Assembly: GCA_963822945.1 (NCBI GenBank) | Contig: CAWGJO010000023.1 | Span: forward strand, 1 to 20,493 | DNA length: 20,493 bases | Direction: 5' to 3' | Source of the DNA: an uncultured Gemmatimonadaceae bacterium | Lineage (GTDB): Bacteria > Gemmatimonadota > Gemmatimonadetes > Gemmatimonadales > Gemmatimonadaceae | Shown here: positions 1-20,493 of the stretch, piece by piece | Numbering within the stretch: the stretch's first letter is position 1 | Layout of the letters: each line of letters opens with the position of its first letter | Position numbers and translations under genes: made by a program | Notes under the pieces: model-generated | What the model was told of the DNA's origin: nothing | The model's database searches: none | The model's input: the letters and a program-made list of their open reading frames with translations, nothing else

Positions 1-1
1 C

Positions 2-265
2 GACGGGACGCTGCTCATCCACCAGGTGGATGGGCGGACCTACACGATGGCCATCCGTCCCGGCGCCGACCCGCCCGTCGGGCCACTCACCTTGCGTTTC
101 GACGATCCGCGTATGGGGGAAGGCCCGGGCTGGTCCAATTCGATCACTAGCGACGGCGCGGTGGTCTATCCGCTGGTGCCGGATCAGCCCTCTGTCGACT
201 ATCTCCGGGTCATCCCCCACTGGCTCACGCACATGGAGCACGCCGTGGACGAGGCGAACAAATGA
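2..265 (+). CDS. 3' end of a CDS (5'-truncated by the window), probably another kinase/beta-propeller paralog (K0)
   Basis: Frame open from base 2 (DGTLLIHQVDGRTYTMAIRPG...WSNSITSDGAVVYPLV...LRVIPHWLTHMEHAVDEANK*). The tail resembles the downstream kinase C-termini (YDVSxDG...LIVVENWDRAL). Its TGA overlaps the K1 ATG (ATGA at 262-265). Confidence 0.6.
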   Translation, partial: DGTLLIHQVDGRTYTMAIRPGADPPVGPLTLRFDDPRMGEGPGWSNSITSDGAVVYPLVPDQPSVDYLRVIPHWLTHMEHAVDEANK

Positions 266-2934
266 CGAGTACTGCCGACCGCCTGATCGCCGCCCTGGCC
301 GACCGCTACCGCATCGAGCGCGAGCTCGGCGCCGGCGGCATGGCCACCGTGTATCTGGCCGAAGACCTCAAGCACGATCGCAAGGTCGCGATCAAGGTCC
401 TCAAGCCCGAGCTGGCCGCCGTGCTCGGCGCCGAGCGCTTCGTGCAGGAGATCAAGACCACCGCGGCGCTGAGCCATCCGCATATCCTGCCGCTCTTTGA
501 CTCCGGCGTGGCGGATGGGCAGCTCTACTACGTGATGCCCTACATCGAGGGCGAGACGCTGCGCGAGAAGTTGAACCGCGAGACGCAGCTCGGGGTGGAC
601 GAGGCGATCAAGATCACCACCGAGATCGCCGACGCGCTGGACTACGCGCACCGGCACGGCGTGATCCACCGCGACATCAAGCCCGAGAACATTCTGCTGC
701 ACGACGGGCGGCCGATGGTGATGGACTTCGGCATCGCGCTGGCCGTGAGCGCCGCGGCCGGCGGGCGCATGACCGAAACGGGCCTCAGTCTCGGCACGCC
801 CTACTACATGAGTCCCGAGCAGGCGACGGCGGACAAGGACATCACGGCGCGCAGCGATATCTACTCGCTGGCGATCGTCCTCTACGAAATGCTGGCCGGC
901 GAGCCGCCGCACACCGGGAACTCGGCGCAGCAGATCATCATGAAGATCGTCACCGAAGACGCCGCGCCGGTCACCCGCCTGCGGAAGAGTGTGCCGGCGA
1001 ATGTGGCGGCGGCGCTCGGTGAAGCGCTGCAGAAGCTCCCCGCCGACCGCTTCGAGAGCGCCAAGGCCTTTGCCGACGCGCTGGCCGACGTGCACTTCAC
1101 GACCGGCGCGGCCGCGGCGGCGATCGGTGGCGGCCCGCTATCCGTTCGCTCCGCGATGCGCAGTCCGGTGACGGCGGCCCTGGCGGCCGCGCTGGTGATC
1201 GTCGCGGTCCTTGCCGGTGTGGAGTGGCACGCGGCGCATCGTGCGGTGCCCACCCCCGTCGTGCGGTTCCAGTTGCCGTTGCCCTCCACACAACAGGTCG
1301 CAAATACGGCGCCGAGCCGCAACGTGGCCGTATCGCCGGACGGCCAGACCCTCGCGTATACCGTGCCCGATTCCACCGGCGCATCACACCTTTATGTGCG
1401 TCGTCTCGGTGAGGCCGATCCGCGCATGTTGGCCTCCACCGATGGTGCCCAGCAGCCGACCTTCTCGCCGGACGGGCGGTGGGTCGCCTATGCGGTCGGC
1501 ACGGTGGTGTGGAAAGTGCAGGTCTCGGGCGGCGCGCCGGTTCGGCTGGCGGATCCCGGGACGAGCCCCACCGGTTTGACGTGGAGTTCGTCCGGAGAGA
1601 TCGTCGACGCCATCGTGCGCGGCCTGTATGCGATTCCGCAGAGCGGCGGAACGCCACGCCTGATCGCCAAGCCCGATTCGGCAGCCGGTGAGTTGTATTT
1701 CAACCAGCCGTTTGCCCTCCCGGACGGAAAGTCGGCGCTGTTCTCCATTCAGCCGGCGGCGGGGCCGAACCAGACGCATCTGGCCGAGGTGTCGTTGGAG
1801 AGCGGCAAGGTGCAACGGTTCCACTTCGATCTGATGGACGTTTCCGGCTACGTGGACGGTACGCTGGTGTACGTGCTCGCATCGGGTCCGCTCATGGCCG
1901 TACGGTTCGATCTCAAGAGCGGAAAGGCGACCGGCACTCCGGTAGCACTCGGTCCCAGCGTCGTCACGACACTGGCAGGGGCGAGCATGTCGGCCCTGTC
2001 GTCCAACGGCACGCTGGTGTACGAGCCGACCAGCGCCCGGGCCAGGTTGGGGTGGGTCAACATGCACGGCCAGTTCACGCCGTTGCAGTCCAAAGCGCAA
2101 GGGTATGCCTACCCGCGACTCTCGCCCGACGGGAAACGTATCGCGATGTCCATCGGCGCCGACGGCCGCTCCGACATCTGGCTGTATGACATCGCGTCGG
2201 GCACGCCAATTCGGATCACGAACGCCGGGACGCTGAACGACCGCCCGGAGTGGAGTCCCGACGGCAAGCGTGTGCTCTACCGCTCGGATCGCAGCGGACG
2301 CCCGGGCATCTGGTGGGAACCGGCCGATCAGAGCGCACCGTCCACGGCCCTCGAGGCCGGTCCGCAGCACGCCTACTTCGAGGGGGTGATCTCTCCAGAC
2401 GGCAAGTACCTCGTGTATCAGATGGACGACGCCGGCGCCGAACAGGCCGACGTGATGTATCGTGCCCTCGCGGGCGACACGACGTCGCACCCGGTTGCCG
2501 CCACGCGATTCGTCGAGACGCAGGCCCGTGTTTCGCCCGACGGCCATTGGGTGGCCTACGTGACCGATGAGTCGGGAACGTCGCAGGTGCGCGTGAAGCC
2601 ATTCCCCGGTCCGGGTGGCCAGGTCCAGGTGTCGGTGTCCAGCGGCAGTGAGCCCGTGTGGTCTCGCGACGGCACTCGGCTGTTCTACCGCGATGGACGG
2701 CACATGATCGCCGCGTCGGTGCGAACGTCGGGCGGCAGTTTTCTCGTCACCGGGCGTACCGAACTCTTCGACGACGACTACGTCTACGCCGAGGCGCCAC
2801 ACGCCAACTATGACGTATCGCCGGATGGGACGCGTCTGCTGATGGTGCAGAGCGCCGAAAAGCCGGAATACGAAGTCGTCGTCGGATTTGCGACGGAGCT
2901 GCGGGCCAGGATGCGGGCGGCCGCCGGCAACTGA
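262..2934 (+). CDS. Membrane-anchored Ser/Thr protein kinase with TolB/PD40-like beta-propeller ectodomain (K1, 890 aa)
   Basis: Intact Hanks motifs GAGGMATVY, VAIK, HRDIKPEN, DFG and GTPYYMSPEQ. TM segment TAALAAALVIVAVLAGV. Repeated SPDG blade motifs (VSPDGQ, FSPDGRW, LSPDGKR, WSPDGKR, ISPDGKY, VSPDGHW, VSPDGTR). Confidence 0.95.
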   Translation: MTSTADRLIAALADRYRIERELGAGGMATVYLAEDLKHDRKVAIKVLKPELAAVLGAERFVQEIKTTAALSHPHILPLFDSGVADGQLYYVMPYIEGETLREKLNRETQLGVDEAIKITTEIADALDYAHRHGVIHRDIKPENILLHDGRPMVMDFGIALAVSAAAGGRMTETGLSLGTPYYMSPEQATADKDITARSDIYSLAIVLYEMLAGEPPHTGNSAQQIIMKIVTEDAAPVTRLRKSVPANVAAALGEALQKLPADRFESAKAFADALADVHFTTGAAAAAIGGGPLSVRSAMRSPVTAALAAALVIVAVLAGVEWHAAHRAVPTPVVRFQLPLPSTQQVANTAPSRNVAVSPDGQTLAYTVPDSTGASHLYVRRLGEADPRMLASTDGAQQPTFSPDGRWVAYAVGTVVWKVQVSGGAPVRLADPGTSPTGLTWSSSGEIVDAIVRGLYAIPQSGGTPRLIAKPDSAAGELYFNQPFALPDGKSALFSIQPAAGPNQTHLAEVSLESGKVQRFHFDLMDVSGYVDGTLVYVLASGPLMAVRFDLKSGKATGTPVALGPSVVTTLAGASMSALSSNGTLVYEPTSARARLGWVNMHGQFTPLQSKAQGYAYPRLSPDGKRIAMSIGADGRSDIWLYDIASGTPIRITNAGTLNDRPEWSPDGKRVLYRSDRSGRPGIWWEPADQSAPSTALEAGPQHAYFEGVISPDGKYLVYQMDDAGAEQADVMYRALAGDTTSHPVAATRFVETQARVSPDGHWVAYVTDESGTSQVRVKPFPGPGGQVQVSVSSGSEPVWSRDGTRLFYRDGRHMIAASVRTSGGSFLVTGRTELFDDDYVYAEAPHANYDVSPDGTRLLMVQSAEKPEYEVVVGFATELRARMRAAAGN
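289..1100 (+). repeat. Kinase-domain repeat copy, near-identical to ~15475-16290 and more diverged from ~5441-6255, ~10644-11450 and ~18227-19020
   Basis: Long shared DNA stretches, e.g. aaggtcgcgatcaaggtcctcaagccc and tacatcgagggcgagacgctgcgcgagaag, in both K1 and K4. Confidence 0.9.
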
Positions 2935-2936
2935 GG

Positions 2937-2966
2937 TTGTGGCCCACCCACTCGCCGCCATAAGAT
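2937..2966 (+). promoter_or_regulatory. Possible sigma70-type promoter (TTGTGG-N18-TAAGAT) upstream of the MBL remnant and M1 peptidase
   Basis: TTGTGG at 2937-2942 and TAAGAT at 2961-2966 in an intergenic region. A GAGG Shine-Dalgarno at 3023-3026 precedes ATG 3033. Confidence 0.35.
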
Positions 2967-3032
2967 TTCGCCGCCCCCCTGCCGTCCCCCAGCGGCGTTC
3001 GCTCGTTTGATTTTCAACCGCTGAGGCGTTCG

Positions 3033-3370
3033 ATGCGCACCCGATTGGCCGTCTGCACGGCGCTCCTGCTCGCTCCCACGCCGGCGTTCGGCCAGCGGGC
3101 CCGGCGCCGCGCCGCTCTCCCCAACGCCGCCGCCGGCGTGGTGCGGCGGGCGGTGGCCGCCGCCCGCAAGGACTCGCTGCTCGCGAATACCACACGCATT
3201 TCCATACGTCGGGCATCGAGTTGGGCGAGATGGCCGCCAGGGCGCGCCCCAAGCTGCTCGTGCTCACCCATATTCTGTTCATGGGCCAGCCGGCCCAGGA
3301 AATCGTCGACGAAGTCAAATCGCACTTCTCCGGACCGGTGGTGATGGGTGCCGATCTGGCCATGTTCTGA
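3033..3370 (+). pseudogene. Internally deleted, frameshifted remnant of a secreted MBL-fold metallo-hydrolase (RNase Z/AtsA-like)
   Basis: From ATG 3033: signal peptide MRTRLAVCTALLLAPTPAFG-Q, then AGVVRRAVAAARK, which resembles the segment after the D-x-G-x-G motif in this family. A different frame at 3182-3370 gives [62 protein letters not shown], a typical RNase Z-type C-terminus (HT...A..A.PKLLVLTH...DL). The HxHxDH core is absent. Confidence 0.7.
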
Positions 3371-3386
3371 TCGAGGGATGCTCACG

Positions 3387-5363
3387 ATGAAACGCACTGC
3401 CATTTCTGTCTGTCTGGCCGCCGCGTGCATGGCCGGCTTCGGGACCCCTGCGCACGCCCAGTACAACGTCCGCCAGACGTTCGATCCCACCTTCCTCAGC
3501 AATCCGGGGACGATCTATCGCAGCGGCTCCGGCGCGCCCGGCCCGCGCTACTGGCAGAACGAGTCCGACTACCGCATCCACGTCACGCTCGATCCCGCCA
3601 AGCACACCGTCTCGGGCACCGACCAGATCACCTACACCAACAACAGTCCCGACACGCTGCACTACCTCTGGCTGCAGCTCGATCAGAACCTCTACGCCAA
3701 GGACTCGCGCGGCACGATCACGGCGGCGCTCAACAATCCGCGCTACATCACGCCGGGGTTCAGCGGCGGCTACACCATCGCGTCGGTCCAACTCGACGTG
3801 GGCGGGCGATGGCAGAAGGCCGACTACCTGATCACCGACACGCGCATGCAGATTCGGTTGCCGCGCGCGCTGGTGCCCAACGGCAGCAAGGCGCACGTGC
3901 GCATCGCGTACTCGTACGTCGTGCCGCCCTTCCGCCAGCGCACCGGGTGGTACGACACCAAGAACGGTCCCATCTATGCCATCGCCGAGTGGTATCCGCG
4001 CATGGCCGTATACGACGACGTGAAGGGGTGGAACACCCTTCCGTACCTGGGACGCGGGCAGTTCTATCTGGACTATGGCACCATCGACTACGCGATCACG
4101 GTGCCCTGGAACTTCCTGGTCGTGGGGTCGGGCAAGCTCACCAACCCGCGCGACGTGCTCACCGGCACCGAGAACGCGCGCCTCGCGGCGGCGGCGAAGA
4201 GCGACAGCACGGTCACCGTCCGCGGCGCGTCGGAGGTGACGAATCCCGCCACGCGTCCGGTGCGCAGCGGCACGCTCACCTGGCGCTTTCACATGACCAG
4301 CACCCGCGACGTGGCGTGGGCGGCGTCGCCTGCGTTCATCTGGGACGCGGCCGGCATCAACCTGCCGCACCATCAGACCGCGCTCGCCGAGTCGGCGTAT
4401 CCCGTGGAAGTCGCGGGCGATTCGGCCTGGGGAAGTTCCACGCAGTACGTGAAACACACCATCGAGTACGACTCGCAGCAGTGGTACCCGTACCCGTGGC
4501 CGGTGGCGGTGAACGTTGCGGCAGCCGCCGGCGGCATGGAGTACCCGGGCATGGTGTTCTGCGGTTGGACGGCCAAGGGCCGCTCGTTGTGGAGCGTGAC
4601 CACGCACGAGATCGGGCATAGCTGGTTCCCGATGATCGTCGGCTCCGACGAGCGCCAGTACGGCTTCATGGACGAGGGGTTCAACTCGTTCATCGACATC
4701 TACTCCACGCTGGCCTACGACCATGGCCGCTACGCGCCGTACAGCGCCATGGAAGACTCCATGCCGCTGCTCGCCCGCGCGATGAAGGGCACCGGACAGC
4801 CGAACCCGATCATCACCTACGCCGACAACATCAAGCGCGACTACCTGGGCTTCAACAACTACGTGAAGCCCGCGGCCGCGCTCTACCTGCTGCGCGAAGA
4901 CGTGCTCGGCCACCGGCGGTTCGACGAGGCGTTCCGCGCCTACATACAGCGCTGGGCCTACAAGCATCCCACGCCGAAGGACTTCTTCCGCACCATGAAC
5001 GACATTTCCGGTGAGGACCTCGACTGGTTCTGGAAGGAATGGTTCTACGAGCCCTGGACGCTCGACCAGGCCGCAACGGGCGTGTCGTACGTGGAGGGGA
5101 ATCCGGCCAAGGGCGCCGTCATCACGATCGCCAACAACGACCACATGGTCATGCCGGCCACCGTTCGTGTGGTGGAGCGGGGCGGGCAGAGCGGGACCGT
5201 CCACCTGCCCGTGGAGATCTGGCAGCAGGGCGGGAAGTTCTCGTTCCGCTACGATTCGCACGCCGCCATCGACTCGGTGATCGTGGACCCCGGCGACCGC
5301 ATGCCGGACGTGGACCGGGCGAACAACGTCTGGACCGCGTCAGGATCGGGCGGAGGGCGCTGA
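3387..5363 (+). CDS. Secreted M1-family zinc metalloaminopeptidase
   Basis: Signal peptide [30 protein letters not shown] (GAMEN-like) motif and HEIGH-x18-E (MDEG) gluzincin motif. YWQN N-terminal and [23 protein letters not shown]-terminal family motifs. GAGGG at 3373-3377 supports ATG 3387 (3378 is an alternative start). Confidence 0.93.
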
Positions 5364-5401
5364 ACGCCCGAATTTCCGATGGCATTCCGTGGCCGTAGCC
5401 T

Positions 5402-5416
5402 GCATCTTTGCGCATG
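5402..5416 (+). promoter_or_regulatory. Conserved upstream element GCATCTTTGCGC-ATG; possible -10 box of a leaderless kinase transcript
   Basis: Nearly the same sequence lies before K4 (GCATCTTTGTCGC-ATG, 15435-15450), and CATCTT lies before K5 (18187-18192). None of the three has a Shine-Dalgarno. Confidence 0.4.
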
Positions 5417-8098
5417 GCAGACGCCCTCTCCCGCCTGAGCGCCGCCCTTTCCGACCGCTACCGCCTGGAGCGCGAGCTCGGGCAGGGCGGCATGGCCACC
5501 GTCTATCTCGCCGAGGACCTGAAGCACGATCGCAAGGTCGCGATCAAGGTCCTCAAGCCCGAGCTCGCCGCCGTCTTGGGCGCCGAGCGCTTCGTCAGCG
5601 AGATCAAGACCACGGCCGCGCTGCAACATCCGAACATCCTGCCGCTCTTCGATTCGGGCGAGGCCGACGGCTTCCTGTTCTACGTGATGCCGTACGTGGA
5701 GGGCGAGACGCTCCGCACGAAGCTCGACCGCGAGGCGCAGCTTGGCATCGACGCGTCGGTGAAGCTGGTGAGCGAGATCGCCGACGCACTGGACTACGCG
5801 CACCGGCACGGCGTGGTCCACCGCGACATCAAGCCTGAGAACATTCTCATCCACGACGGGCGCCCGATGGTCGCCGACTTCGGCATCGCGCTCGCCGTGA
5901 GCGCCGCCGCCGGCGGGCGGATGACGGAGACCGGGCTGAGTCTCGGCACGCCGCACTATATGAGTCCCGAGCAGGCGACCGCCGAAAAAGCGATCACGGG
6001 GCGGTCGGACATCTACTCGCTGGCCAGCGTCTTGTACGAGATGCTCACCGGCGATCCGCCGCACACGGGCAAGACGGCGCAGCAGGTGATTGCGAAGATC
6101 ATCGCCGAGGACGCGCCGCCGGTGACCAACGGCCGCAAGGCCGTACCGGCGAACGTGGCGGCCGCGCTCTCCAAAGCGCTGCAGAAACTCCCGGCCGACC
6201 GGTTCGACTCAGCGAGAGCATTCGCCGACGCATTGGCGGATCCGCACTTCTCCACGGCGGGTGGCACGACGATCGGCGTCGGTGCGTCGCCCGCTCGCCA
6301 ACGCGGACTCGTCGTTGGGCTGAGCCTGTTTGGCGCGGCCATGACGGCGGTGGCGGCGTGGGCACTGCTGCGCCCGCAGCCCCAGCCTCCGGTGTCGCGC
6401 TACGCGCTTTCACTCCCGTCCGACCAGACCCCGGCCTGGGACGGGTTCGTCGTCGGCACGTCAGACGGTTCGCGTCTCGTCTATCAAGGACCGGCGCTGG
6501 CGGGCCAGCGCGGCCAACTCTGGGTGAAGCAGCGCGATCGGGTGGATGCCGTGCCGCTGGCCGGCACCGACGGAGCCACGGCGGCGGCGATCTCGCCCGA
6601 CGATCAGTGGCTCGCGTTCGTCCGCGGCTCGGACCTGCTCAAGATGCCGCTGGCCGGCGGACCGAGTACGGCGCTGGCGCACGATGCCGGCAATGTCGGT
6701 GGCGCGGTCACCTGGCTCGACGACGGATCCATCGTGTACGTCGCCGCCGATTCGGTCCGGGCCCACGTGCTCGAACGCATCGCGTCCGAGGGTGGAGCGC
6801 CTCTGCGTATCTGGCGCTCTCCCACGCTCATTCCTCGTATGCTCACTCCGCTTCCACGTGCGAGGGGTGTGTTGTTCGAGGGATGCAATGGGCTGTGCAT
6901 GACGGTCGGACTCTACGCCCTGAACCTGCGGACAGACTCGGTATCCGAGGTTCGCCCGGGGGTGCATGCCGGCTACGTGGTTGGCGGCAACCGCCTCGTC
7001 TTCATCGATGCCGACCAGACCGCGATGGTCGCCCCGTTCGACATGAGCTCGCTCCGCATCTCCGGAACCGCGAAGCCGGTGGCCGACACGGTCTCCATGG
7101 GCCTGGGCCTCTCGCCCTACTTCTGGGTCGCACCCGACGGCGGGACCCTGGCGCTGCAGCGTGGCCAGTTGGCCGACCGCAATGGGCTCTACCAGTTCGT
7201 CTGGACGGATTCATTGGGCCGGATTGCGACGGTGGACACGAGCACGCGGTTTGCGGTGGCGCAGCGCGGCGCGGATTTCGGCTGGCGCCTCTCGCCCAAC
7301 GGGCGGCAGGTCGTGGTCGGCGTGCATAACGGTTCCGGCGATCGGATCTGGGTGAAGGCGCTGCCCCAGGGCGCCATGTGGAGGGTCACGGACCGCGAGT
7401 CCTGGCGCCCGCGCTGGCGCCCGGATGGCGCGCATGTCACGTTCGTCGGCGACAGCGGGATCTACATGGCCCGCGCGGACGGGACGGGCCGCGACTCGCT
7501 GATCTGGCCCGGGCAGTTCGACGAGGGCGTCGTCTCGCCCGATGGACGCTGGCTGCTGGTGCGCAATGGCGCCACCGGGCCGAACGCCGGCGGCCGCGTC
7601 ATTTCCGGGGCGCGGCTGGGCGTCGATACCGTGCTGCGTCCCATCGTCGCCACCTCCAGCGACGCGATGGCCATCGAGCTTTCACCAGATGGCCGCTGGC
7701 TCGCCTACGAGTCGAACGAGACCGGCCGCGTGGAGATCTATGTGCGCCCCTTCCCGGTCACGCCCGCCGGCGGGCGCCGTCAGGTATCGGCGCGCGGCGG
7801 AACCGGGCCGCTCTGGTCGCCCAACGGGCGCACGCTCTACTACCTGCGCAGTGATGGCGAGATGATGGCCGTGCCATGGCCGCCCGCGCACGGCGTGCCG
7901 GAAGCGCGCGAACTCTTCCATCTGAGTTCCGCGCTCACGAACACCTGGATCAACGCCAACTACTACACGCCCTGGGACGTGGACGCCCGCGGACGCTTCC
8001 TCATGGTCCGCGAGGTGGGCAGCGGCGGCAGCCAGAGCACGCCCCTGATCGTGGTGGAGAACTGGGACCGGGCGCTGCGGAGCGTGATGGGGAAATGA
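5414..8098 (+). CDS. Membrane-anchored Ser/Thr protein kinase with beta-propeller ectodomain (K2, 894 aa)
   Basis: Start MADALSRLSAALSDRY matches the paralogs. Motifs GQGGMATVY, HRDIKPEN, DFG, GTPHYMSPEQ. TM GLVVGLSLFGAAMTAVAAWALL. SPDG/SPNG repeats. Confidence 0.95.
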   Translation: MADALSRLSAALSDRYRLERELGQGGMATVYLAEDLKHDRKVAIKVLKPELAAVLGAERFVSEIKTTAALQHPNILPLFDSGEADGFLFYVMPYVEGETLRTKLDREAQLGIDASVKLVSEIADALDYAHRHGVVHRDIKPENILIHDGRPMVADFGIALAVSAAAGGRMTETGLSLGTPHYMSPEQATAEKAITGRSDIYSLASVLYEMLTGDPPHTGKTAQQVIAKIIAEDAPPVTNGRKAVPANVAAALSKALQKLPADRFDSARAFADALADPHFSTAGGTTIGVGASPARQRGLVVGLSLFGAAMTAVAAWALLRPQPQPPVSRYALSLPSDQTPAWDGFVVGTSDGSRLVYQGPALAGQRGQLWVKQRDRVDAVPLAGTDGATAAAISPDDQWLAFVRGSDLLKMPLAGGPSTALAHDAGNVGGAVTWLDDGSIVYVAADSVRAHVLERIASEGGAPLRIWRSPTLIPRMLTPLPRARGVLFEGCNGLCMTVGLYALNLRTDSVSEVRPGVHAGYVVGGNRLVFIDADQTAMVAPFDMSSLRISGTAKPVADTVSMGLGLSPYFWVAPDGGTLALQRGQLADRNGLYQFVWTDSLGRIATVDTSTRFAVAQRGADFGWRLSPNGRQVVVGVHNGSGDRIWVKALPQGAMWRVTDRESWRPRWRPDGAHVTFVGDSGIYMARADGTGRDSLIWPGQFDEGVVSPDGRWLLVRNGATGPNAGGRVISGARLGVDTVLRPIVATSSDAMAIELSPDGRWLAYESNETGRVEIYVRPFPVTPAGGRRQVSARGGTGPLWSPNGRTLYYLRSDGEMMAVPWPPAHGVPEARELFHLSSALTNTWINANYYTPWDVDARGRFLMVREVGSGGSQSTPLIVVENWDRALRSVMGK

Positions 8099-8913
8099 AC
8101 GCAGTCCGCTCGTTGCATTCCGGAGTCTGGCCTCCGTCGGTGCGCCGCCCTGTTCGTCGCCACCGCACTTCTCGCCCTCCCGCGCCTCGCCAGCGCCCAG
8201 TCCGTGCTCAACACCGAGCGCGTGGATCCGCTCGAGGTCTCCGGGCTGTTCGCGAGCGTCGCCGCGGGCACCACGCTCCAGGGCGGCAACGCCGACGTCG
8301 TGAAGCTCAAGGGAAACGGCGCCACGGGATACCGCGCTACGCACTCGTGGATCCTGCTCGTGGGCGGGCTCTCGTACCTGTCGAGCTCGAACAAGGTGTC
8401 CACCGACGACCGGTACCTGCAGATACGCTACGGCCGCTTCCTGTCGCCGCGCACCCGCACCTTCCACTTCGTGCAGATCCAGAACAGCCGAGAGCAGGCG
8501 TTGTCGCACCGGCTGCTGCTCGGCAACGGCGTGCGCCACAGCTTCGTGCGCAACGCGAGCAGCCGGCTCGACCTCGGCGCCGGCGTCATGTGGGAATCCG
8601 AGCGCCTGGACGCCGCGCTCCTGCCGGCCGGCACGCCCACCACTTCCCACGACTGGCGTGGCGACTTCATCGCCTTCGCCATGCACCGGATCTCCGCCAC
8701 CAGCCGGCTCACCAACATGCTCTACCTGGAGCCGCGCTGTGGACATCCCGGCGGACGTCCGCCTGCTCGACGAACTCCACCTGCTCGTGACCATCGGTGC
8801 CGGCTTCGATCTCGACGTGGGGCTTCCAGTGGCTCCACGACAGCCGGCCGCCCGGCACGGTGCGGCCGAACGACGTCGAACTCGACACCGCTCTCTCGCT
8901 CACGGTGAAGTAG
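8095..8913 (+). CDS. DUF481-like outer-membrane beta-barrel protein with three apparent +1 frameshifts (sequence error or pseudogene)
   Basis: ATG 8095 overlaps the K2 stop. The next frame gives signal peptide RRCAALFVATALLALPRLASA-QSVLNTER and amphipathic strands (LQGGNAD, RLLLGNGVRH, LDLGAGVMWESE, TNMLYLEPR). A shift at ~8738 gives VDIPADVRLLDELHLLVTIGAGFDLDV. A shift at ~8820 gives GFQWLHDSRPPGTVRPNDVELDTALSLTVK* (TAG 8911-8913). The DSRPP..V...D tail is typical of DUF481. Confidence 0.7.
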
Positions 8914-8925
8914 GCGCCGCGGCGC

Positions 8926-8942
8926 GGCGGGCGATGCCCGCC
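8926..8942 (+). terminator. GC-rich hairpin after the DUF481 stop, possible terminator
   Basis: GGCGGGC-GAT-GCCCGCC, a perfect 7-bp stem 12 nt after the TAG. Only a weak U-tract follows. Confidence 0.3.
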
Positions 8943-9144
8943 CGTGTTCGTCACTTCCTCACCGAGCGCTCCGGGCCGGGTCCACGACCTCGGGGAGATG
9001 TTCGGACTGGCGGGGGCCGGTGTTTGTACCAATCTTGGGGCGCCAATGCTCAATTCCCAGAAGCATCCCGAGTAGCGCCGCCGGAATTGCGGCCGCACCG
9101 GACGGGTCGGACACCCCGACCATTCACCGATAGAGGAATCGCAC

Positions 9145-10617
9145 ATGACGACAGACGCTCAGGCGCAGGCGCGGACGAAGGGCTTCACGACCCTCTTCCT
9201 CGTCGAGCTGTGGGAGCGGTTCGGCTACTACGGCATGACGGCGGTGGTGGTGCTGTTCATGGTGCAGCAGCTTGGCTACACCGACGACCGCGCGAATCTC
9301 ACATTCGGCGCGTTCGCCGCGCTCGCCTACACCGTCCCCGCCATCGGCGGCTGGATCGGCGACAAGATCCTCGGCAGCCGTCGCACGCTGGTCCTCGGCG
9401 CGCTGGTGCTCGCCCTCGGATACATCGGGCTCTCGATCCCGAATCACCCCGAATTGCTCTTCCCCGCGTTGGCCCTGGTCGCGGTGGGCGGCGGCATCTT
9501 CAAGGCGAACCCCGCCAACATGATCTCCAAACTCTACGAGGGCGACCCGGCCAAGCTCGACAGCGCGTTCACGATGTACTACATGGCGGTCAACATCGGA
9601 TCGGCCGTCTCGCAGATCGCCACGCCGCTCATCGCCATCAAGGTCGGCTGGCACGCGGCATTCGCGGTGTGTGCGGGCGGCCTCGTCGTCGGCATCCTCA
9701 ACTACTTCGCCATGAGCCGGTATCTCCGGCACGTCGGTTCGGCGCCAGACTTCCAGCCCCTCAACGTGAAGCGCCTGCTCGTGGTTCTCGTCGGGATCGC
9801 CATCGGCGTGGTGCTGGTGTCGTACATCATCCAGAACCGCACCGTGGCGCGGGCCACCGTCTTGCTCGGGTTCCTGACCATGCTCGCCATCTTCGGGGTC
9901 ATGGGAAGCAAAGGGAGCGAGCGCGAGCGGAAGGGGCTCATTTCCGTGTTGATCCTGACGGGGCTCGGCATGCTGTTCTTCATCTTCTATCAGCAGATGT
10001 CCACGTCGCTCACGCTCTTCTCGCTCCGCAACGTCGAGCTCAACCTGTTCGGATACCAGGTGCCCGCGGGACAGGTCCAGGCGCTGAATCCACTCTGGAT
10101 CTTCATCCTCAGCCCGGGGCTGGCCTGGCTCTACAACAGCCTGGGCCGGGGCGAGGGCGGCGACTTCCATATCTCCACCAAGTTCGCCATGGGATTCGCC
10201 GTGTTGGCGCTCGGCTTCTTCATCTACGGCTTCAGCGGCCATTTTGCCGTGGCCGGCAAGGTCTCGTTCTGGTTCATGATCGTCGGGTACGCCTTCCAGT
10301 CGCTGGGAGAACTCCTCATCAGCGGACTGGGTCTCGCCATGGTCGCGCGCTACGTCGGCCCATCGCTCCGCGGGTTCCTCATGGGCGTCTGGTTCCTGGC
10401 TACCGGAATCTCGCAGTACCTGGGCAGCTACGTCGCCACGTACGCCAGCGTGCCGCAGAGCGTGACGAGTCCCGTGGACTCGCTGCCGCTGTACACGAAC
10501 CTGTTCCTGAAGCTGGGCATCGTGGCCGTGATCGGCACCGTGATCGCCACCGCGCTGATCCCGCTGATGAAGAAGCTGTCGGTGGTGACCGAAGGGCCAT
10601 GGGAGGAGGCCGCGTAG
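9145..10617 (+). CDS. POT/PTR-family proton-dependent di-/tripeptide transporter (MFS), DtpA/TppB-like, 490 aa
   Basis: ELWERFGYYG (ExxERFxYY motif), GGWIGDKILGSRR, FTMYYMAVNIGS (PTR2 signature) and GELLISGLGL. Many TM helices. GAGGA Shine-Dalgarno at 9133-9137. Confidence 0.95.
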   Translation: MTTDAQAQARTKGFTTLFLVELWERFGYYGMTAVVVLFMVQQLGYTDDRANLTFGAFAALAYTVPAIGGWIGDKILGSRRTLVLGALVLALGYIGLSIPNHPELLFPALALVAVGGGIFKANPANMISKLYEGDPAKLDSAFTMYYMAVNIGSAVSQIATPLIAIKVGWHAAFAVCAGGLVVGILNYFAMSRYLRHVGSAPDFQPLNVKRLLVVLVGIAIGVVLVSYIIQNRTVARATVLLGFLTMLAIFGVMGSKGSERERKGLISVLILTGLGMLFFIFYQQMSTSLTLFSLRNVELNLFGYQVPAGQVQALNPLWIFILSPGLAWLYNSLGRGEGGDFHISTKFAMGFAVLALGFFIYGFSGHFAVAGKVSFWFMIVGYAFQSLGELLISGLGLAMVARYVGPSLRGFLMGVWFLATGISQYLGSYVATYASVPQSVTSPVDSLPLYTNLFLKLGIVAVIGTVIATALIPLMKKLSVVTEGPWEEAA

Positions 10618-13274
10618 TGGCTGACGCGCCGTCCCGTTTGGCCGCCGCCCTGGCCGACCGCTACCGCATCGAGCGCGAGCTCGGGGAGGGCGGGATGGCG
10701 ACCGTCTATCTCGCGCGCGATCTGAAGCACGACCGCCAGGTCGCCATCAAGGTCTTGCGCCCGGAACTCGCCGCCGTGATCGGCGCCGAGCGCTTCCTGG
10801 CCGAGATCCGGACGACGGCGAATCTGCAGCACCCGCATATTCTGCCGCTGCACGATTCGGGCGAGGTGGACGGCACGGTCTTCTACGTGATGCCGTTCGT
10901 GGAGGGCGAATCGCTCCGCGACCGGCTGGACCGGGAGCACCAACTCCCCGTGTCTGACGCCGTTCGCATGGCCATCGAGGTGGCCGGCGCGCTGGACTAC
11001 GCGCACCGGCACGGCGTCATCCATCGCGACATCAAGCCCGAGAACATCCTGCTGCACGACGGCCAGTCGCTGGTGGCCGACTTCGGGATCGCGCTCGCCG
11101 TGAGTCGCGCCGACGGTAGCACGCGGATGACTGAAACCGGCATGTCGCTGGGCACGCCGCACTATATGAGTCCCGAACAGGCGATGGGCGAGCGTGAGAT
11201 CACCGCGCGCTCCGACGTCTACGCGCTGGGCTGCGTCTTATACGAGATGCTGCTCGGCGAGCCGCCGTTCACGGGCCCCACCCCGCAGGCGATCATCGCC
11301 CGCGTGGTGACCGAGGATCCGCGCAGTCTCATGGCCCAACGAAAGACGATTCCGCCGGGCGTCGAGGCGGCGGTGCACACGGCCTTGCAAAAGCTTCCAG
11401 CCGACCGGTTCGCGACGGCGGCCGAGTTCGCCGAGGCGCTGCAGCATCCAGAGCGCGCGCCGGCGGGAGCGAGGGCGCCTACGAGCGCCCCGACAAAGGT
11501 ACCCCGCTGGATGTGGGGCGTGGTTGCCGCGGCCGCCGCCATCGGCGTCGTCGCCGGCGGGATGCGACATGCCCCCGCGAGCGCGGACCCGGGCGTCATT
11601 CGAGCGACGTTCCGGCTCGGAGACAGCGTTCTGATTCGCGCCATCCAGAACGAACTGCTCGCCATCTCACCAGACGGGCGTCGTGTCGCGTTCGTCGGCA
11701 TGGCGTCGGGGGTGACGACGACGTCTCTCTGGATTCGCAACCTGAACGAACCGCGGGCGCGGATGATCGCCGGCACGGGGACCCCCGGGGCCCCGTTCTT
11801 CTCGCCCGATGGGCGAGCCATCGGGTTCACCCACCGTGGCGGCATCATGGTCACGTCCGTTGAGGGAGGAACCGTGCGAACCGTCGTCGACACAGGGAGC
11901 ACGGGCTTCGGCGCTTCGTGGGCCGACGATGGTTACATCTACTTCGCGAACACGGCCTACGGACTCTCGCGGGTGCCGGCCGCCGGCGGGGCTGTGGAAG
12001 TCGTGAGCCACCCCGACTCGGCGAGCAAGGATCTGGTGCAGGACTTTCCCGATGTGCTCCCCGGGGCCCGGTTCGCGATCGTCGGCATCTGGAGGGGCAA
12101 CGTCGCCACGGCGAAGATCGGCGTCGTCGATCTCCGGACTGGGAAGGAGACCGCGATAGCCGACGGAGCATACGCGCGCTACGTCGCTCCGGGCTACCTC
12201 GCCATCGGCACGACGAATGGCGATCTCCTCACCGCTCCCTTCGACCCGGCACGAGGTGTGCTCACCGGACCGCCGGTGCTCGCCGTGTCCGATGTCGATC
12301 ACGATATCGCCAGCGGCACGGTGCAATTTGCGGTGTCCGCCGCCGGCACTCTGATCTACACCAATGGGGACGCGAAGAACTCCCGTCTGGTGTGGAGGGA
12401 TCGTGGCGGCGGTGAGGCGGTGATCGACTCGGTGCACGCGGGCGTGCTGACCACGGTCGCCCTTTCGCCCGACGGCACCCGGGCGGCCCTTTCGAGAACG
12501 GAGTCCGGCGGCAGCAGCGTCTGGATCGAGCAGTTCGGCACGGGAGCGCTGACCAGACTCAGCGTCAACGAAGCCGACGCGGATCGCGCGGTCTGGACCC
12601 CCGACGGCAGGAGCGTTGCCTATCTGGCAACGCGGGACGGCCATCGCAGGGTCTGGGTCCGCCGCGCCGACGCGAGCGACACGGCCCGGGCCCTGTCACC
12701 CGCCGGCCTCGACCTCGACGAAGTGTCGTTCGATCCTCAGCGGCGGTACATCCTCTACCGCACCTTCGGCACGGGGCCGGGCAGTCGGCACCTCCTGATC
12801 GCGCGCGCCGGCGCCGACAGTGTCCTGCGACCGTTCTTGAGTTCCAACGTCGATCACTATGCGATGACCTTTTCCTCCGATGGGAACTGGCTGGCATATG
12901 TCTCCGAGTCGTCCGGGCACCCCGAGGTTGTTGTGCGGCCATTCCCCAACGCCGATTCGGCGCGGTTCACGGTGTCGGTGAACGGCGGCGTGGAACCGGT
13001 GTGGCGCCGCGACGGGAAGGAACTCTTCTACCGCAGCCCGCGCGGGGAAACGTTCGTCGTGCCGACGACCATCGGCCGCACGTTCACCCACGGCGTTCCG
13101 AAGCAGCTCCTGGAGTCTACGGGGGGTGTGCTGGGGCCGTACTTCCGCGACTACGACGTGAGTGCCGACGGCCGCCGATTCCTGATGGTGGCTGGCGGCG
13201 ACAATGGCACGCGCGAAATCTCGCTCGTCGTCAACTGGCGACAGGAATTGGAACAGCTGGGCCGGAAACCGTAA
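10617..13274 (+). CDS. Membrane-anchored Ser/Thr protein kinase with beta-propeller ectodomain (K3, 885 aa, GTG start)
   Basis: GTG 10617 shares its G with the transporter TAG, and GGAGGAGG sits at 10602-10609. The start (M)ADAPSRLAAALADRY matches the paralogs. Motifs HRDIKPEN, DFG, GTPHYMSPEQ. TM WMWGVVAAAAAIGVVAGG. SPDG repeats. Confidence 0.93.
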   Translation: MADAPSRLAAALADRYRIERELGEGGMATVYLARDLKHDRQVAIKVLRPELAAVIGAERFLAEIRTTANLQHPHILPLHDSGEVDGTVFYVMPFVEGESLRDRLDREHQLPVSDAVRMAIEVAGALDYAHRHGVIHRDIKPENILLHDGQSLVADFGIALAVSRADGSTRMTETGMSLGTPHYMSPEQAMGEREITARSDVYALGCVLYEMLLGEPPFTGPTPQAIIARVVTEDPRSLMAQRKTIPPGVEAAVHTALQKLPADRFATAAEFAEALQHPERAPAGARAPTSAPTKVPRWMWGVVAAAAAIGVVAGGMRHAPASADPGVIRATFRLGDSVLIRAIQNELLAISPDGRRVAFVGMASGVTTTSLWIRNLNEPRARMIAGTGTPGAPFFSPDGRAIGFTHRGGIMVTSVEGGTVRTVVDTGSTGFGASWADDGYIYFANTAYGLSRVPAAGGAVEVVSHPDSASKDLVQDFPDVLPGARFAIVGIWRGNVATAKIGVVDLRTGKETAIADGAYARYVAPGYLAIGTTNGDLLTAPFDPARGVLTGPPVLAVSDVDHDIASGTVQFAVSAAGTLIYTNGDAKNSRLVWRDRGGGEAVIDSVHAGVLTTVALSPDGTRAALSRTESGGSSVWIEQFGTGALTRLSVNEADADRAVWTPDGRSVAYLATRDGHRRVWVRRADASDTARALSPAGLDLDEVSFDPQRRYILYRTFGTGPGSRHLLIARAGADSVLRPFLSSNVDHYAMTFSSDGNWLAYVSESSGHPEVVVRPFPNADSARFTVSVNGGVEPVWRRDGKELFYRSPRGETFVVPTTIGRTFTHGVPKQLLESTGGVLGPYFRDYDVSADGRRFLMVAGGDNGTREISLVVNWRQELEQLGRKP

Positions 13275-13287
13275 CGGGAACCCAACT

Positions 13288-15390
13288 ATGAGCATCGTGA
13301 GACTCACCGCACTCGCGGTCGCCGTCAGCATCGCCGCCGCTCCCACGGCTTCCGCCCAGGGCGCCGCGAAACCCGACACCACGGCCGCCGACACCGCCGG
13401 CCCGCACACCACGTTTCGCCTCACCGACCTGCGCGCCCTCGTGCAGGTGGGCAGTCCGGAGATCAGCCCCGACGGCAAGGAGATCGCGATCGTCGTCAGC
13501 CGGTGGGACTGGAAGGAGGACAAGTCGCGCCGTCAGATCGACCTGGTGAACGTGGCCGACGGCTCCAGCCGCCCACTCACCTACGAGCGCGACGGCGTCG
13601 GCTCGCCCAAGTGGTCGCCCTCGGGCGACCGGCTGGCCTTCGTGGCGCCGGACACCTCCAAGAAAGGGCAGATCTGGGTGCTGAGCATGAAGGGCGGCGA
13701 CCCGATCCGCCTCACCGAGTCCAAAACCGGCGTGTCGTCGTACTCGTGGAGCCCCGACGGGCGCACGATCGCCTACGTCGCGCAGGACACCGTGCCCGAC
13801 CCCAAGGCCATCAAGCACCACGAAGACGCGTTCCAGATCACGCTCAACAACTATCAGGCGCGCGCCGCGGTGCAGCCCTGGCATCTCTGGATGATTTCCG
13901 CGAACGGCGGCAAGGCCAGGCGCCTCACCGCCGGCCGCTGGAGTCTGCAGACCGAACCCGGTGGGGCGGCACCGCCCGCCTGGAGCCGCGACGGGAAATC
14001 CCTCATCGTCGTCCGCCATCCGGGCGTGTGGTTCGGCAACGCCTACCGCTCCACGCTCGTGCGCGTGGACACCGCCGCCAAGGCGGACTCGATGCCGCCG
14101 CTGGCCGTGGGGACGCCCGACACGGCGCGGGTACGCGTCGGCACCACCGGCGATACGCTGCTCGCCGGCGAGGGCGCCGGCAACCCCGAGTTCGCGCACG
14201 ACGGTGCGGCGCTCGCCTTCCGCCGCGCCCGCGGTGGCGACATGAACAACGGGAATGCGGTGTACGTGGAACAGAACGGAACGCTGCGCGACGTCACGGC
14301 CGACATGGCGCGCGACATCGGCGCCTTCGCCTGGCTGCCCGGCGGACGGTCGTTCCTGCTCACCGGACCGCTCGGCGCGCGCACGGCCATGTGGGTCAAG
14401 CCGGTCGACCGCGCGGCGCGCCTGGTCGACCTCGGCGCCGTGCAGCCCTCGGGCGCGGTAAGTGTCTCGGACAGTGGTGCCGTGGCGTTCATCGGACGCA
14501 CCACCGGCCAGCCGGGCCAGCTCTACTACATGGCGTCGCCGAGTGCGACGCCGAAGCAGCTCACGCATTTCAACGTCTTTCTCGACTCGCTGCACCTGGG
14601 CCGTGTGGACACGGTGGCGTGGAACGGGCCGGACGGATTCCGCGAGGACGGCGTGCTCACCTATCCCCCCGACTACGAGTCGGGAACCAAACTCCCGCTC
14701 GTGCTCGTCGTGCACGGAGGGCCGGGGAGCGCGTCCACGGGCATCTTCTCTCCGCTGCCACAACTCCTCGCCGCACGCGGGTACCTGGTGTTCGAGCCGA
14801 ACTACCGCGGCAGCACCAACCTCGGCGACCGCTACCAGCACGCCATCTATCGCAACACCGGTGACGGGCCCGGCAAGGACGTGATGGCCGGGCTGGCCGC
14901 AGTGGAGAAGCTGGGCGTGGTGGACACCAGCCGCATCGGTGTTTCGGGCTGGTCGTACGGCGGCTACATGACCACCTGGCTCACCGGCCACTACCATCCG
15001 TGGAAGGCGGCGGTGGCCGGCGCCGCGCTCACCGACTGGGTCATGGACTACACCATCGCCTTCTATCAGGACGGCGACCTGTACTTCTTCGGCGGCTCGC
15101 CGTGGACCAAGGAGTACTGGGACATCTGGCGTGAGCAGTCGCCCATCACCTACGCGCGCAACGTCACGGCGCCCACGCTCGTCATGGGCGACATCGGCGA
15201 TCCCAACGTGCCCATCGTGAACAGCCTCGAGTGGTACCATGCCATCCGGGACAACGGCGTGGAGACCGAGTTCTGGTCGTATCCGGCCGACACGCATTTC
15301 CCCGGCGACATCGTGCGTCAGACCGACGTCTACCGGCGCTGGATCGACTGGCTGGACCGGTATCTGAAGCCGGGTGAGGGCAAGAAGTAG
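13288..15390 (+). CDS. Secreted S9-family serine peptidase (acylaminoacyl/dipeptidyl-peptidase-like, 700 aa)
   Basis: Signal peptide MSIVRLTALAVAVSIAAAPTASA-Q. N-terminal PD40 propeller (ISPDGK, WSPSGD, WSPDGR). Motifs VHGGP, PNYRGS and nucleophile GWSYGG, with Asp (DPNV) and His (DTHFP) completing the triad. Confidence 0.95.
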   Translation: MSIVRLTALAVAVSIAAAPTASAQGAAKPDTTAADTAGPHTTFRLTDLRALVQVGSPEISPDGKEIAIVVSRWDWKEDKSRRQIDLVNVADGSSRPLTYERDGVGSPKWSPSGDRLAFVAPDTSKKGQIWVLSMKGGDPIRLTESKTGVSSYSWSPDGRTIAYVAQDTVPDPKAIKHHEDAFQITLNNYQARAAVQPWHLWMISANGGKARRLTAGRWSLQTEPGGAAPPAWSRDGKSLIVVRHPGVWFGNAYRSTLVRVDTAAKADSMPPLAVGTPDTARVRVGTTGDTLLAGEGAGNPEFAHDGAALAFRRARGGDMNNGNAVYVEQNGTLRDVTADMARDIGAFAWLPGGRSFLLTGPLGARTAMWVKPVDRAARLVDLGAVQPSGAVSVSDSGAVAFIGRTTGQPGQLYYMASPSATPKQLTHFNVFLDSLHLGRVDTVAWNGPDGFREDGVLTYPPDYESGTKLPLVLVVHGGPGSASTGIFSPLPQLLAARGYLVFEPNYRGSTNLGDRYQHAIYRNTGDGPGKDVMAGLAAVEKLGVVDTSRIGVSGWSYGGYMTTWLTGHYHPWKAAVAGAALTDWVMDYTIAFYQDGDLYFFGGSPWTKEYWDIWREQSPITYARNVTAPTLVMGDIGDPNVPIVNSLEWYHAIRDNGVETEFWSYPADTHFPGDIVRQTDVYRRWIDWLDRYLKPGEGKK

Positions 15391-15447
15391 TGCGCTATTC
15401 CGATTGTGGCGCTGGTTATCGGCGCTGGGGGGCCGCATCTTTGTCGC

Positions 15448-18150: not shown

Positions 18151-18202
18151 GTGTGACCGGACTGGCCGTTGGCCCCGCCGTCGCACCATCTTCTACCTCA
18201 CC

Positions 18203-20493
18203 ATGCCGAGTCCCGAAAAGCTTACGGCCGCCCTCGCCGACCGCTACCGTATCGAGCGAGAGCTCGGCCAGGGCGGGATGGCCACGGTCTACCTCGCCGA
18301 GGACCTCAAGCACGACCGCAAGGTCGCGATCAAGGTCCTGCACCCGAGCTGGCGGCCGTCTCGGCGCCGAGCGGTTTCTCAGCGAGATCAAGACCACGGC
18401 CAACCTGCACCACCCGCACATCCTCCCGCTGCACGATTCGGGCGAGGCCGACGGGCTGCTGTACTATGTCATGCCGTTCGTCGAGGGGAGTCTCTGCGCG
18501 CCGGCTCGACCGCGAGAGCCGCTCCCGCTCGACGACGCGCTGGGCATCGCGCGCGAAGTGGCCGACGCCCTGGACTACGCCCACCGCCAGGGCGTGATCC
18601 ATCGCGACATCAAGCCCGAGAACATCCTGCTGCACGACGGGCAGGCGCTGGTGGCGGACTTCGGCATCGCGCTCGCCGTGCAGAGCGCGGCGGCGAGCCG
18701 GATGACGCAGACCGGGCCTCTCGTGGGCACGCCGCAGTACATGAGTCCCGAGCAGGCGATGGGCGAGAAGCGATCGACGCCCGGAGCGACGTGTACGCGC
18801 TGGGCGGCGTGCTCTACGAGATGCTCACCGGCGATCCGCCGTTCACCGGCTCCACGGTGCAGGCGATCGTCGCCAAGGTGATGAGCGCCGAGCCCGAGCC
18901 GGTGACGATGCTGCGCAAGAACACGCCGCCCGCCGTAGCCGCCGCGGTGCATCGGGCGCTCGAGAAGCTGCCGGCCGATCGATTCCCCACGGCGCGCGCG
19001 TTCGCCGACGCGCTCGTGGCACCGGCGCGCCGCCAGTACGGCGACCTGGCCGTACGCCCACCGGAGCGGCCTGCCGGGGTGGCGCCGCGTGTTCGGACAG
19101 CCGGCGACAGTTGCGCTCGCCGTCGTGGCGATTGCGGCGATCGCTGTGGCCGTGCGCGAGCGGCGCAACGCGGACGGGTCCGCGCCCGCGCAGGTGGAAC
19201 GATTCATCGTCGAGCCGCCGGCCAGGATGAACCGGACGTCGGGCTCGAGTCCACGCAGAACGTCGCCATCGCGCCCGACGGATCGTTGATGGTGTTCGCG
19301 GCGATCGGCGCCGACGGCATGGAACGCCTGTACGCGCGCCCGGTGGATGCACTCGCGGCGCGGCCCCTGGAGGGCACCGAGGGCGGCAGCCAGCCGTTCT
19401 TTTGCCCGACGGCCGGCTCGTGGCGTTCTGGGTGGCCGGCCGACTGCTCAAGATTAGCGTGGGGGGCGGACGGGCCTCGCTCATCACCGATCTGGGAGAC
19501 ATGACCGGCGCGACGTGGACCGTCGGTGGCGACATCGTGGCCAGCGTCGGGAATCGCCTCGTCTGGTTCCCGGTCCGTGATCCGAGCCAACGGCGCACGG
19601 CTGCGCTCGACACCGCGCACCAGAAGCGCTGCAAATCTTCCCGGTCGCCATGCCCGATGGCGAGCACGTGCTGTATTCGAGCTGGGGAACGGGCGGGCTG
19701 GAACAGGTGGTGCTCGGTGAGCTGTCGCTGAAGACGGGGCGCGCCCGGCGGCTCGACATTCCCGCCCGAAGTGTCCTCGGCATGGTGGATGGAGTCCTCG
19801 CGTTCTCGAACGAGAGCGGTGGGGTGGCCGCCGAGCCGTTTGATGCCGGGAGCGGCGCGCTCACCGGACCTCTGATTCCGCTGATATCGAACGTGGCGAA
19901 TGGCGAGCGCGGCGTTGCCCTCGCGTCGCTGTCCGCCACCGGCACGCTCTTCTACGCCACGGGGACGGCCCAGGCCACGCTGGTGCTCGCCGACTCTACG
20001 GGCGACACGCCCGTGATCGCGGAACCCCGCGAGTATGCGTACCCGCGGTATTCGCCCGACGGCAAGCGGATCGCCATCACGATCGGCGCCGGGGCCACCC
20101 GCGACGTGTGGCTGTACGATGTCGCGACCCGTGGCCTGCGCGGCCTCACGAGCGGCGGATCGGTGAATGAACGTCCCGAATGGTCGCCCGACGGCAAGCG
20201 CGTGCTCTTCGGGTCGGACCGGGGCGGCCGGTCCGCCATCTGGTGGCAGCCCATCGACGAGAGCGCGCCTGCCACGTTGCTCGTTGGCGACCCCAAGCTC
20301 CTGCCGTACGAAGCCGTCATGATGCCCGACGAGCCGAGGGATCGTCTATCAGGTGGATACGATGCGCGCCAACATCTACTACCGCGCAATCCGTGGGGAC
20401 ACGACGCCGCAGCCCATCGCCACGTCGCCCGCCGACGAGTCGGAACCGCGTCCGTCGCTGGATGGACACTGGATCGCCTTTCAGGCCTCCGAG
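18203..20493 (+). CDS. Membrane-anchored Ser/Thr kinase with beta-propeller ectodomain (K5), 3'-truncated by the window, with ~11 frameshifts
   Basis: Starts MPSPEKLTAALADRY. Motifs HRDIKPEN, DFG, GTPQYMSPEQ. TM ATVALAVVAIAAIAVAV. Ectodomain motifs YAYPRYSPDGKRI and ERPEWSPDGKRVLF. Frame changes near 18345, 18360, 18487, 18502, 18518, 18770, 19030-19090, 19240, 19401, 19630 and 20335. Confidence 0.85.

Follow-up and report, generated by a model that had tools for sequence, protein, structure and literature searches.

Receptor kinases with periplasmic propellers, lineage-specific kinase expansions, and amino acid sensing by a kinase are all known from bacteria. PknD of Mycobacterium tuberculosis (PDB 1RWI) joins a kinase domain through a transmembrane helix to a propeller; ligand-driven dimerization and activation are established for PknD and PknB, and the ligand of PknD had not been identified as of the review that covers them, as far as its available text goes (PMC3601408). 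The available text of PMC11032199 describes a lineage-specific expansion in Planctomycetota of single-pass kinases whose Pkinase domain is cytoplasmic and whose WD40 or TPR repeats are periplasmic. In Actinobacteria, the GlnH-GlnX-PknG-GarA/OdhI system reads a periplasmic amino acid signal through a Ser/Thr kinase (available text of PMC6069109). Here, a tandem row of kinase-transmembrane helix-propeller genes, numbered K0 to K5, is described from an uncultured Gemmatimonadaceae bacterium. The window analyzed is the entire 20,493-nucleotide (nt) contig C23 (CAWGJO010000023.1) of assembly GCA_963822945.1 (genome G000; 45 contigs, 88% complete), and the array is therefore truncated at both ends. 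No description of arrays in Gemmatimonadales or of conversion between kinase blocks was found in a literature search that mostly did not cover subscription journals, and the main text of the Planctomycetota study does not contain the terms "Gemmatimonad," "gene conversion," or "propeller" (PMC11032199).

We consider it fairly probable that the window belongs to a tandem receptor-kinase array forming a recombination-shuffled library of periplasmic sensors, in which the genes for an M1 peptidase, an S9 peptidase, a POT transporter, and a DUF481 protein are habitual, exchangeable cargo. The ORF (open reading frame) listing and Pfam matches place all genes on the plus strand, in the order K0 tail, K1, metallo-β-lactamase remnant, M1, K2, DUF481, POT, K3, S9, K4, and K5. 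A preliminary description of this DNA had reported codirectional genes with overlapping or very short junctions, which the coordinates bear out: K0/K1 and K2/DUF481 overlap by 4 nt (ATGA), POT/K3 overlap by 1 nt, and the remaining intergenic gaps measure 13 to 180 nt. Its array of six kinase-transmembrane helix-propeller genes (K0 tail and K1 to K5) with M1, DUF481, POT, and S9 between them also stands, except that K4, K5, and DUF481 are frameshifted, leaving K1 to K3 as the only intact kinase ORFs. The K0 tail is 97.7% identical to the C terminus of an intact 880-amino-acid (aa) kinase in the related genome G009, so K0 is a genuine family member.

K1 to K3 match PF00069 above the cutoff, carry the Gly-rich loop, catalytic Lys, HRD, DFG, and APE-like motifs, and have a single hydrophobic helix near residue 300. 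The earlier statement that K1 to K5 all keep their catalytic motifs applies without reserve to these three; in K4 and K5 the motifs (GGMATV, VAIK, HRDIKPEN, DFG, and MSPE) are present but spread over different frames. Across the family, 64 of 66 full-length copies keep them intact. K1 consists of a Pkinase domain (aa 16 to 266), a transmembrane helix (about aa 302 to 320), and the ectodomain. An AlphaFold model of the 567-residue K1 ectodomain, built on a 52-sequence alignment (predicted local distance difference test [pLDDT], 91.8; predicted template modeling score [pTM], 0.87), predicts two six-bladed propellers, the second inserted into the first and the first closed by the C-terminal strand. 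The helix and an ectodomain of ∼560 aa had been correctly anticipated (as one helix and a ∼550-aa propeller), with the correction that there are two propellers, not one. The second propeller (residues ∼266 to 544) matched TolB proteins (Z, 25.8 to 29.2; root mean square deviation [rmsd], 2.5 to 2.7; 245 to 257 residues aligned), and the first matched the PknD ectodomain (Z, 20.9; rmsd, 3.2; 238 aligned), with NHL domains also at a Z of about 21. Tricorn was also considered as the nearest fold, but its structure (1K32) appeared only at rank 50 in Foldseek (template modeling score, 0.31) and lay outside the best 50 matches of the other structure comparison. No peptidase catalytic domain was detected in the kinase-fused propellers. 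Cysteines were absent or even in number in 79 of 82 ectodomain representatives and odd in 3, frequently forming close pairs, and 29 kinase domains bore one single cysteine; net charge was +2.9 ahead of the transmembrane helix versus +1.1 behind it (113 proteins). Because of the paired cysteines and the charge bias, the kinase is predicted to be cytoplasmic and the propeller ectodomain periplasmic.

By motifs, predicted single helix, and predicted topology, the array kinases are assigned to the Hanks-type (PknB-like) receptor Ser/Thr kinases. They share the kinase-transmembrane helix-propeller layout of PknD, whose ectodomain is matched by their first propeller. PknD, however, has a single six-bladed NHL propeller and is a single gene, whereas the array kinases have a second, TolB/PD40-like propeller inserted into the first and form rows of 10 to 25 paralogues with homogenized kinase blocks; judging from the model, they would resemble PknD in the way they work without being members of the PknD subfamily. 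PASTA kinases (PknB/PrkC/StkP) carry PASTA repeats, whereas no match to these repeats was found in K1 to K3 at an E value of ≤0.01 and the model is an all-β propeller. The TolB, tricorn, and DPP IV propellers have the fold and the PD40 repeats in common with the array propellers, which are instead fused to a kinase through a transmembrane helix; look-alike PD40/Tricorn_N clusters in a protein atlas were commonest in Acidobacteriota. In the Planctomycetota proteins, "tandem arrays" are domains within one protein, in the available text of PMC11032199, whereas here the genes are arrayed and appear to swap ectodomains.

In 63 intact paralogues, mean identity was 74% for the kinase and 28% for the ectodomain, and the ectodomains fell into 44 clusters at 50% identity; the corresponding values were 84% and 28% for K1/K2 and 69% and 30% for K1/K3. 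Together with the cysteine and charge pattern and the propeller folds, this division between a constant kinase and a variable sensor upholds the earlier proposal of a conserved signaling core coupled to diversified periplasmic sensors. Chemoreceptor (methyl-accepting chemotaxis protein) sets and plant receptor-like kinase clusters likewise combine a constant signaling domain and a variable sensor with tandem duplication, although the chemistry differs and the parallel is one of analogy only. At the DNA level, identity between paralogues drops sharply where the kinase block ends, and a ∼700-nt kinase block can be 95 to 100% identical in paralogues whose ectodomains are unrelated. One pair of paralogues in G010 has kinases identical in amino acid sequence (synonymous divergence [dS], 0) and ectodomains 24% identical, with DNA identity of 97 to 100% over nt 100 to 800 and about 60% thereafter; for K4 and K6 of G012 the values were 95 to 99% in the kinase block and then about 63%. 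The K1 kinase is 94% identical to the kinases of G012 K6, G009, and G013, where the ectodomains are 26 to 31% alike, and the closest relative of the K1 ectodomain (67%, in G015) is joined to a kinase with just 85% identity. Such blocks joined to unrelated ectodomains fit gene conversion and crossovers within a kinase block of ∼800 nt that would swap ectodomains.

Gene order is rearranged between close strains. In G009, the near-identical K0 orthologue precedes a K1-like kinase whose ectodomain differs. In the window, the spacer and M1 lie 3′ of K1 and ahead of K2; in G012 they lie 3′ of K6, at the opposite end of the row, and the spacer upstream of M1 there is 88.6% identical over 114 nt to the one after K1. 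The K2 orthologues in G012 and G009 have ectodomains 94 to 97% identical to that of K2. Top-face loops of the propellers were less conserved than bottom loops (0.33 to 0.35 versus 0.55 to 0.57), which is compatible with varied ligands. For 11 orthologous pairs, the ratio of nonsynonymous to synonymous substitution rates (dN/dS) was 0.25 in the ectodomain, 0.28 in the top loops, and 0.11 in the kinase, and no positive selection on the top loops was found in these pairs. Purifying selection of this kind would suit sensors of fixed specificity better than an arms race.

Arrays of this type are widespread in Gemmatimonadales. With an ectodomain profile, the family was identified in at least 57 of 101 genomes of the phylum, a lower bound because no more than 13 candidates were scored in each genome; 44 of the 101 gave no match. 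Of the 47 Ser/Thr kinase loci in G000 itself, 15 match the K1 kinase domain at ≥60% identity. The end of its contig C33 holds six further family genes, one fragment, and the start of a seventh, and in G001, G010, G011, and G016 the genes found upstream of the C33 row lie on the same contig as the POT orthologue; the C33 end and C23 therefore probably belong to a single locus with 12 or more kinases. Direct joins of C23 to another contig were rejected since no overlap of ends was found, and the link to C33 is by synteny alone. C33 also carries, at positions 104468 to 106276, a family kinase with a different 600-aa propeller-like ectodomain that has no match to that of K1. A search for related loci with the K1 ectodomain returned only two. 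A row in G029 has 24 family kinases in ∼93 kb on one contig (C3:312171-405265), which also holds four PIN toxin-antitoxin pairs and M14, S9, amidase, and cysteine synthase-like genes; two short kinases in G029 are each paired with a TolB-like PD40 protein encoded apart from them, an arrangement that may be a split receptor and is also seen in G058. Further arrays were found in G051, G058, G062, G065, G071, G081, G093, and G106. A PP2C gene flanks the arrays in G012, G009, G015, G020, G065, and G071; its closest matches in G000 are 47% identical and on a different contig. Three near-identical kinase-DPP IV-MFS-DUF2911-kinase blocks on contigs C2, C6, and C16 of G065 reflect either duplication of the segment or an assembly containing strain variants. 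In G120 (C95:1-28000), at least eight toxin-antitoxin modules (PIN, ParE, and HepT/nucleotidyltransferase) lie between three family kinases.

The genes between the kinases turn over. POT orthologues (83 to 99% identity) occur in 13 of 16 genomes of the same genus, a search of 14 genomes from other genera gave none, and the close homologues of POT are assigned to Gemmatimonadaceae. G+C content in the POT region (window positions 9001 to 10500) is 0.635 to 0.644 versus about 0.68; the lower G+C content and the confinement of the orthologue to the genus among 30 relatives suggest that POT was acquired into the array. This M1 gene lies inside an array in only two of the loci fetched, at a different position in G012, and S9 orthologues 96 to 99% identical are found in G001 and G012. 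Across five genomes, the ectodomain that follows POT belongs to one of four unrelated types (26 to 33% identity), and G000 and G012 have different ectodomains ahead of M1 (31% identity); no sensor type stays paired with M1 or POT. APC amino acid permease (in G001, G009, G010, G011, G065, and G093), DPP IV, M24, M61, S45, M3, and tricorn genes occur inside other arrays, as do genes of many other kinds, among them PIN toxin-antitoxin pairs, DinB, and amylases. A tricorn S41 protease gene adjoins a family kinase without a K1-type ectodomain in G010 (C4:510683-516712) and also in G011, G016, and G004; tricorn-type S41 genes near family kinases in G026 and G029 make this the most lineage-spanning peptidase link seen.

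Association of cargo families with the kinases was assessed by counting genes within 5 kb of core kinases against the expected count, with genome sizes rounded, intervals not clipped at contig ends, and related genomes not independent. The first set comprised nine genomes with 78 core kinases, leaving out G000 itself and G006 (in which S9 and M1 had not been searched); the second comprised nine genomes of nine other genera, four of whose arrays had been viewed ahead of the test. In the first set, S9, M1, M14, and S41 genes together gave 22 of 321 within 5 kb versus 5.2 expected (about 4-fold), and 9 of 113 versus 2.1 outside the genus. Controls gave none (SDR, 0/123; TonB receptors, 0/53; amidohydrolases, 0/84), β-lactamase family genes gave 4 of 55 versus 1.0, and APC permeases gave 1 of 31 versus 0.6, the TonB and APC counts being from four genomes. 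PIN genes were more strongly enriched than peptidases (8/40 versus 0.8). The 29 lower-scoring kinases added just one peptidase against about 2.4 expected. In the second set, the peptidases gave 5 of 155 versus 3.2 (P = 0.22), three of the five being one DPP IV gene repeated in G065, with M1 at 0 of 35 and M14 at 0 of 24 (five genomes searched). The enrichment of M1, S9, and POT neighbors that the preliminary description had put forward as a check was thus seen for peptidases in the first set and not in the second. PIN enrichment, considered as an array-stabilizing feature, was likewise strong in the first set and was rejected when it was not replicated in the second (1/34 versus 0.9).

These results bear directly on the idea of a dedicated peptide-sensing unit, in which M1 and S9 trim peptides, POT imports them, and the neighboring kinases sense the products. 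M1 and S9 have signal peptide-like N termini, the family motifs of all three proteins are intact (HExxH(18)E and GxMEx; GxSxGG-Asp-His; ExxERFxYY), POT overlaps K3 and stays beside a family kinase in most same-genus genomes that have it, the first-set enrichment extends outside the genus, the control families gave none, and peptidase and permease genes recur in other arrays. Such a unit is nevertheless unlikely. The second set shows little excess, the sensors beside POT and M1 are not fixed, PIN genes outdo peptidases in the first set, no cargo separates the kinases in the arrays of G062, G071, G081, and G106, and the cargo is unrelated in G120 (mostly toxin-antitoxin genes) and G042 (amylases and DinB). 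The closest characterized model for such sensing, GlnH-GlnX-PknG, differs in that PknG is soluble, with a separate binding protein and a conserved operon, whereas the array sensor is fused, variable, and without a conserved partner (available text of PMC6069109); no solute-binding protein gene was identified in the window by Pfam. Given the lack of replication, a POT orthologue restricted to one genus, the absence of sensor pairing, and the cargo-free arrays, the peptide link appears weak and lineage dependent, and the fixed peptide-processing module of the preliminary description, with M1 variable in position, is not supported.

An immune-like or kin-recognition role, with receptors for phage, predator, or neighbor surface proteins diversified by an arms race, would account for the constant/variable design, the strain-level turnover, the hypervariable top loops, and the toxin-antitoxin pairs within arrays (four PIN pairs in G029 and many in G120). 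We regard it as very unlikely: orthologous ectodomains are under purifying selection, top loops included, the PIN enrichment did not replicate, and no other defense genes were seen in the fetched arrays, for which a PADLOC search was not made. TolB binds its partners through top-face loops, and the TolB matches of the second propeller could indicate sensors of envelope integrity that bind Pal or another envelope protein. The top-face loops are, however, the least conserved part of the ectodomain, and a single shared partner would not require 10 to 25 paralogues, which makes this reading more improbable still. Least probable of all is a mostly neutral expansion, in which unequal crossing-over increases the number of repeats and many of the copies decay. 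Broken copies are many in the assemblies and presence is patchy, with 44 of 101 genomes lacking a match, but the breaks follow contig ends and are missing from independent contigs, and the near-universal retention of catalytic motifs and dN/dS values of 0.11 to 0.25 speak of purifying selection, by which neutral expansion is already disfavored.

The shuffled sensor library with exchangeable cargo has points against it as well. Of the 13 same-genus genomes with this POT, 12 carry it within about 3.5 kb of a family kinase, a retention across the genus that exceeds the expectation for random cargo. Variable top loops with conserved bottom turns are usual in PD40 propellers and are no sign of binding. 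Repeat polishing in long-read assemblies may inflate the identity of kinase blocks; this requires near-identical blocks beforehand, and polishing could overstate an existing identity without giving rise to it. A search of five genomes found no FHA proteins near core kinase positions, and a peptide-type ligand would rest on fold analogy and an unreplicated enrichment. How such a library might work can be outlined. Each ectodomain type would bind its own stable ligand through its variable top faces; from the fold analogy and the weak enrichment, the ligand would most likely be a peptide or an exposed protein tail, at about even chances. Binding would dimerize and activate the kinase, by analogy with PknB and PknD, and the near-identical kinase domains would feed common substrates, giving many inputs and one output, with signaling reset by the PP2C that flanks the arrays of some relatives. 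A bolder version, which we hold to be doubtful, is that recombination-shuffled libraries in Gemmatimonadales, with as many as about 25 receptor kinases at one locus, read the periplasmic pool of peptides and protein fragments, each double propeller its own peptide signature and all with one output through interchangeable kinase domains, and that peptidases and peptide or amino acid transporters are recruited repeatedly because they act on that same pool.

The features of the window are listed in Table 1.

TABLE 1 Features of the 20,493-nt window (C23)
Feature	Position	Strand	Basis
K0, C-terminal tail of kinase-transmembrane helix-propeller receptor, truncated by contig start	2..265	+	Ectodomain hidden Markov model match, E value 2.5e−17
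K1, intact 890-aa receptor Ser/Thr kinase	262..2934	+	Pfam, motifs, transmembrane helix, AlphaFold, fold search
Weak terminator-like hairpin in ∼110-nt spacer 3′ of K1	2991..3010	+	Single site versus 6.4 expected from shuffles
Remnant of secreted metallo-β-lactamase-fold gene, internally deleted	3033..3370	+	Piecewise alignment to intact paralogue on contig C13 (family Lactamase_B)
Secreted M1 aminopeptidase	3387..5363	+	PF01433; GGMEY and HExxH(18)E; signal peptide-like N terminus
K2, intact 894-aa receptor kinase; CxxxC pair in ectodomain	5414..8098	+	Pfam; motifs
DUF481 protein, frameshifted in window	8095..∼8965	+	PF04338; unbroken in G012 and G009
POT/PTR2 di/tripeptide:H+ symporter	9145..10617	+	PF00854; ExxERFxYY motif
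K3, intact receptor kinase; start overlaps POT stop	10617..13274	+	Pfam; identical in G012
Secreted S9 peptidase with own PD40 propeller	13288..15390	+	PF00326; GWSYGG Ser, Asp, His; signal peptide-like N terminus
K4, receptor kinase, several single-base indels	15448..∼18150	+	Motifs in frames 0 and 2
K5, receptor kinase, frameshifted, truncated by contig end	18203..20493	+	Motifs in frames 0 and 1

The interrupted genes were compared with G012, which is 96 to 97% identical in DNA and syntenic with the window from K2 to K5. Indels relative to G012 climb to 5 to 11 per kb in the final 2.5 kb of the contig, and at least 10 of the same indels are missing from independent contigs of public sequencing runs; DNA runs containing the window (shares of ≤0.16) were used for these indel checks only, and no RNA run was among those listed. 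The breaks in K4, K5, and DUF481 are therefore most likely assembly errors. G012 carries an intact K5 (885 aa) and an intact DUF481 gene, the product of which we take, from the family description, to be an outer-membrane barrel, and K4 of G012 is interrupted by one break, different from those in the window. The kinase block of K4 is 90% identical in DNA to that of K1.

A σ70 promoter scan of the window returned no sites versus 1.4 expected, a result that carries little information at 68% G+C. A CATCTT-like hexamer was observed 5 to 9 nt 5′ of the K2 and K4 starts (window positions 5395 to 5413 and 15425 to 15447), and the pattern YANNNT occupies this place before 28 of 160 kinase starts versus 6 further upstream. 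Such hexamers may be leaderless promoters, which would split the kinase row into several transcripts. In G012 (C12, locus positions 4499 to 6919), a gene for an 807-aa protein with both thiol-activated cytolysin and FG-GAP domains neighbors the genes of an ECF sigma factor and of a kinase unrelated to the family.

Gemmatimonadota are common in soil, and their signaling biology is scarcely described. As the locus illustrates, genes that seem to form a coherent pathway when a single window is viewed may consist largely of cargo. Arrays of this kind, with a constant kinase, a variable sensor, and conversion tracts that can be seen in the DNA, amount to a natural panel: 44 ectodomain types in 63 genes, all on one scaffold. 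With dozens of soluble ectodomains predicted to be well folded, the activators of bacterial receptor Ser/Thr kinases would become open to ligand screening. If it does read a peptide pool, the library would be a bacterial counterpart of the peptide-receptor kinase clusters of plants.

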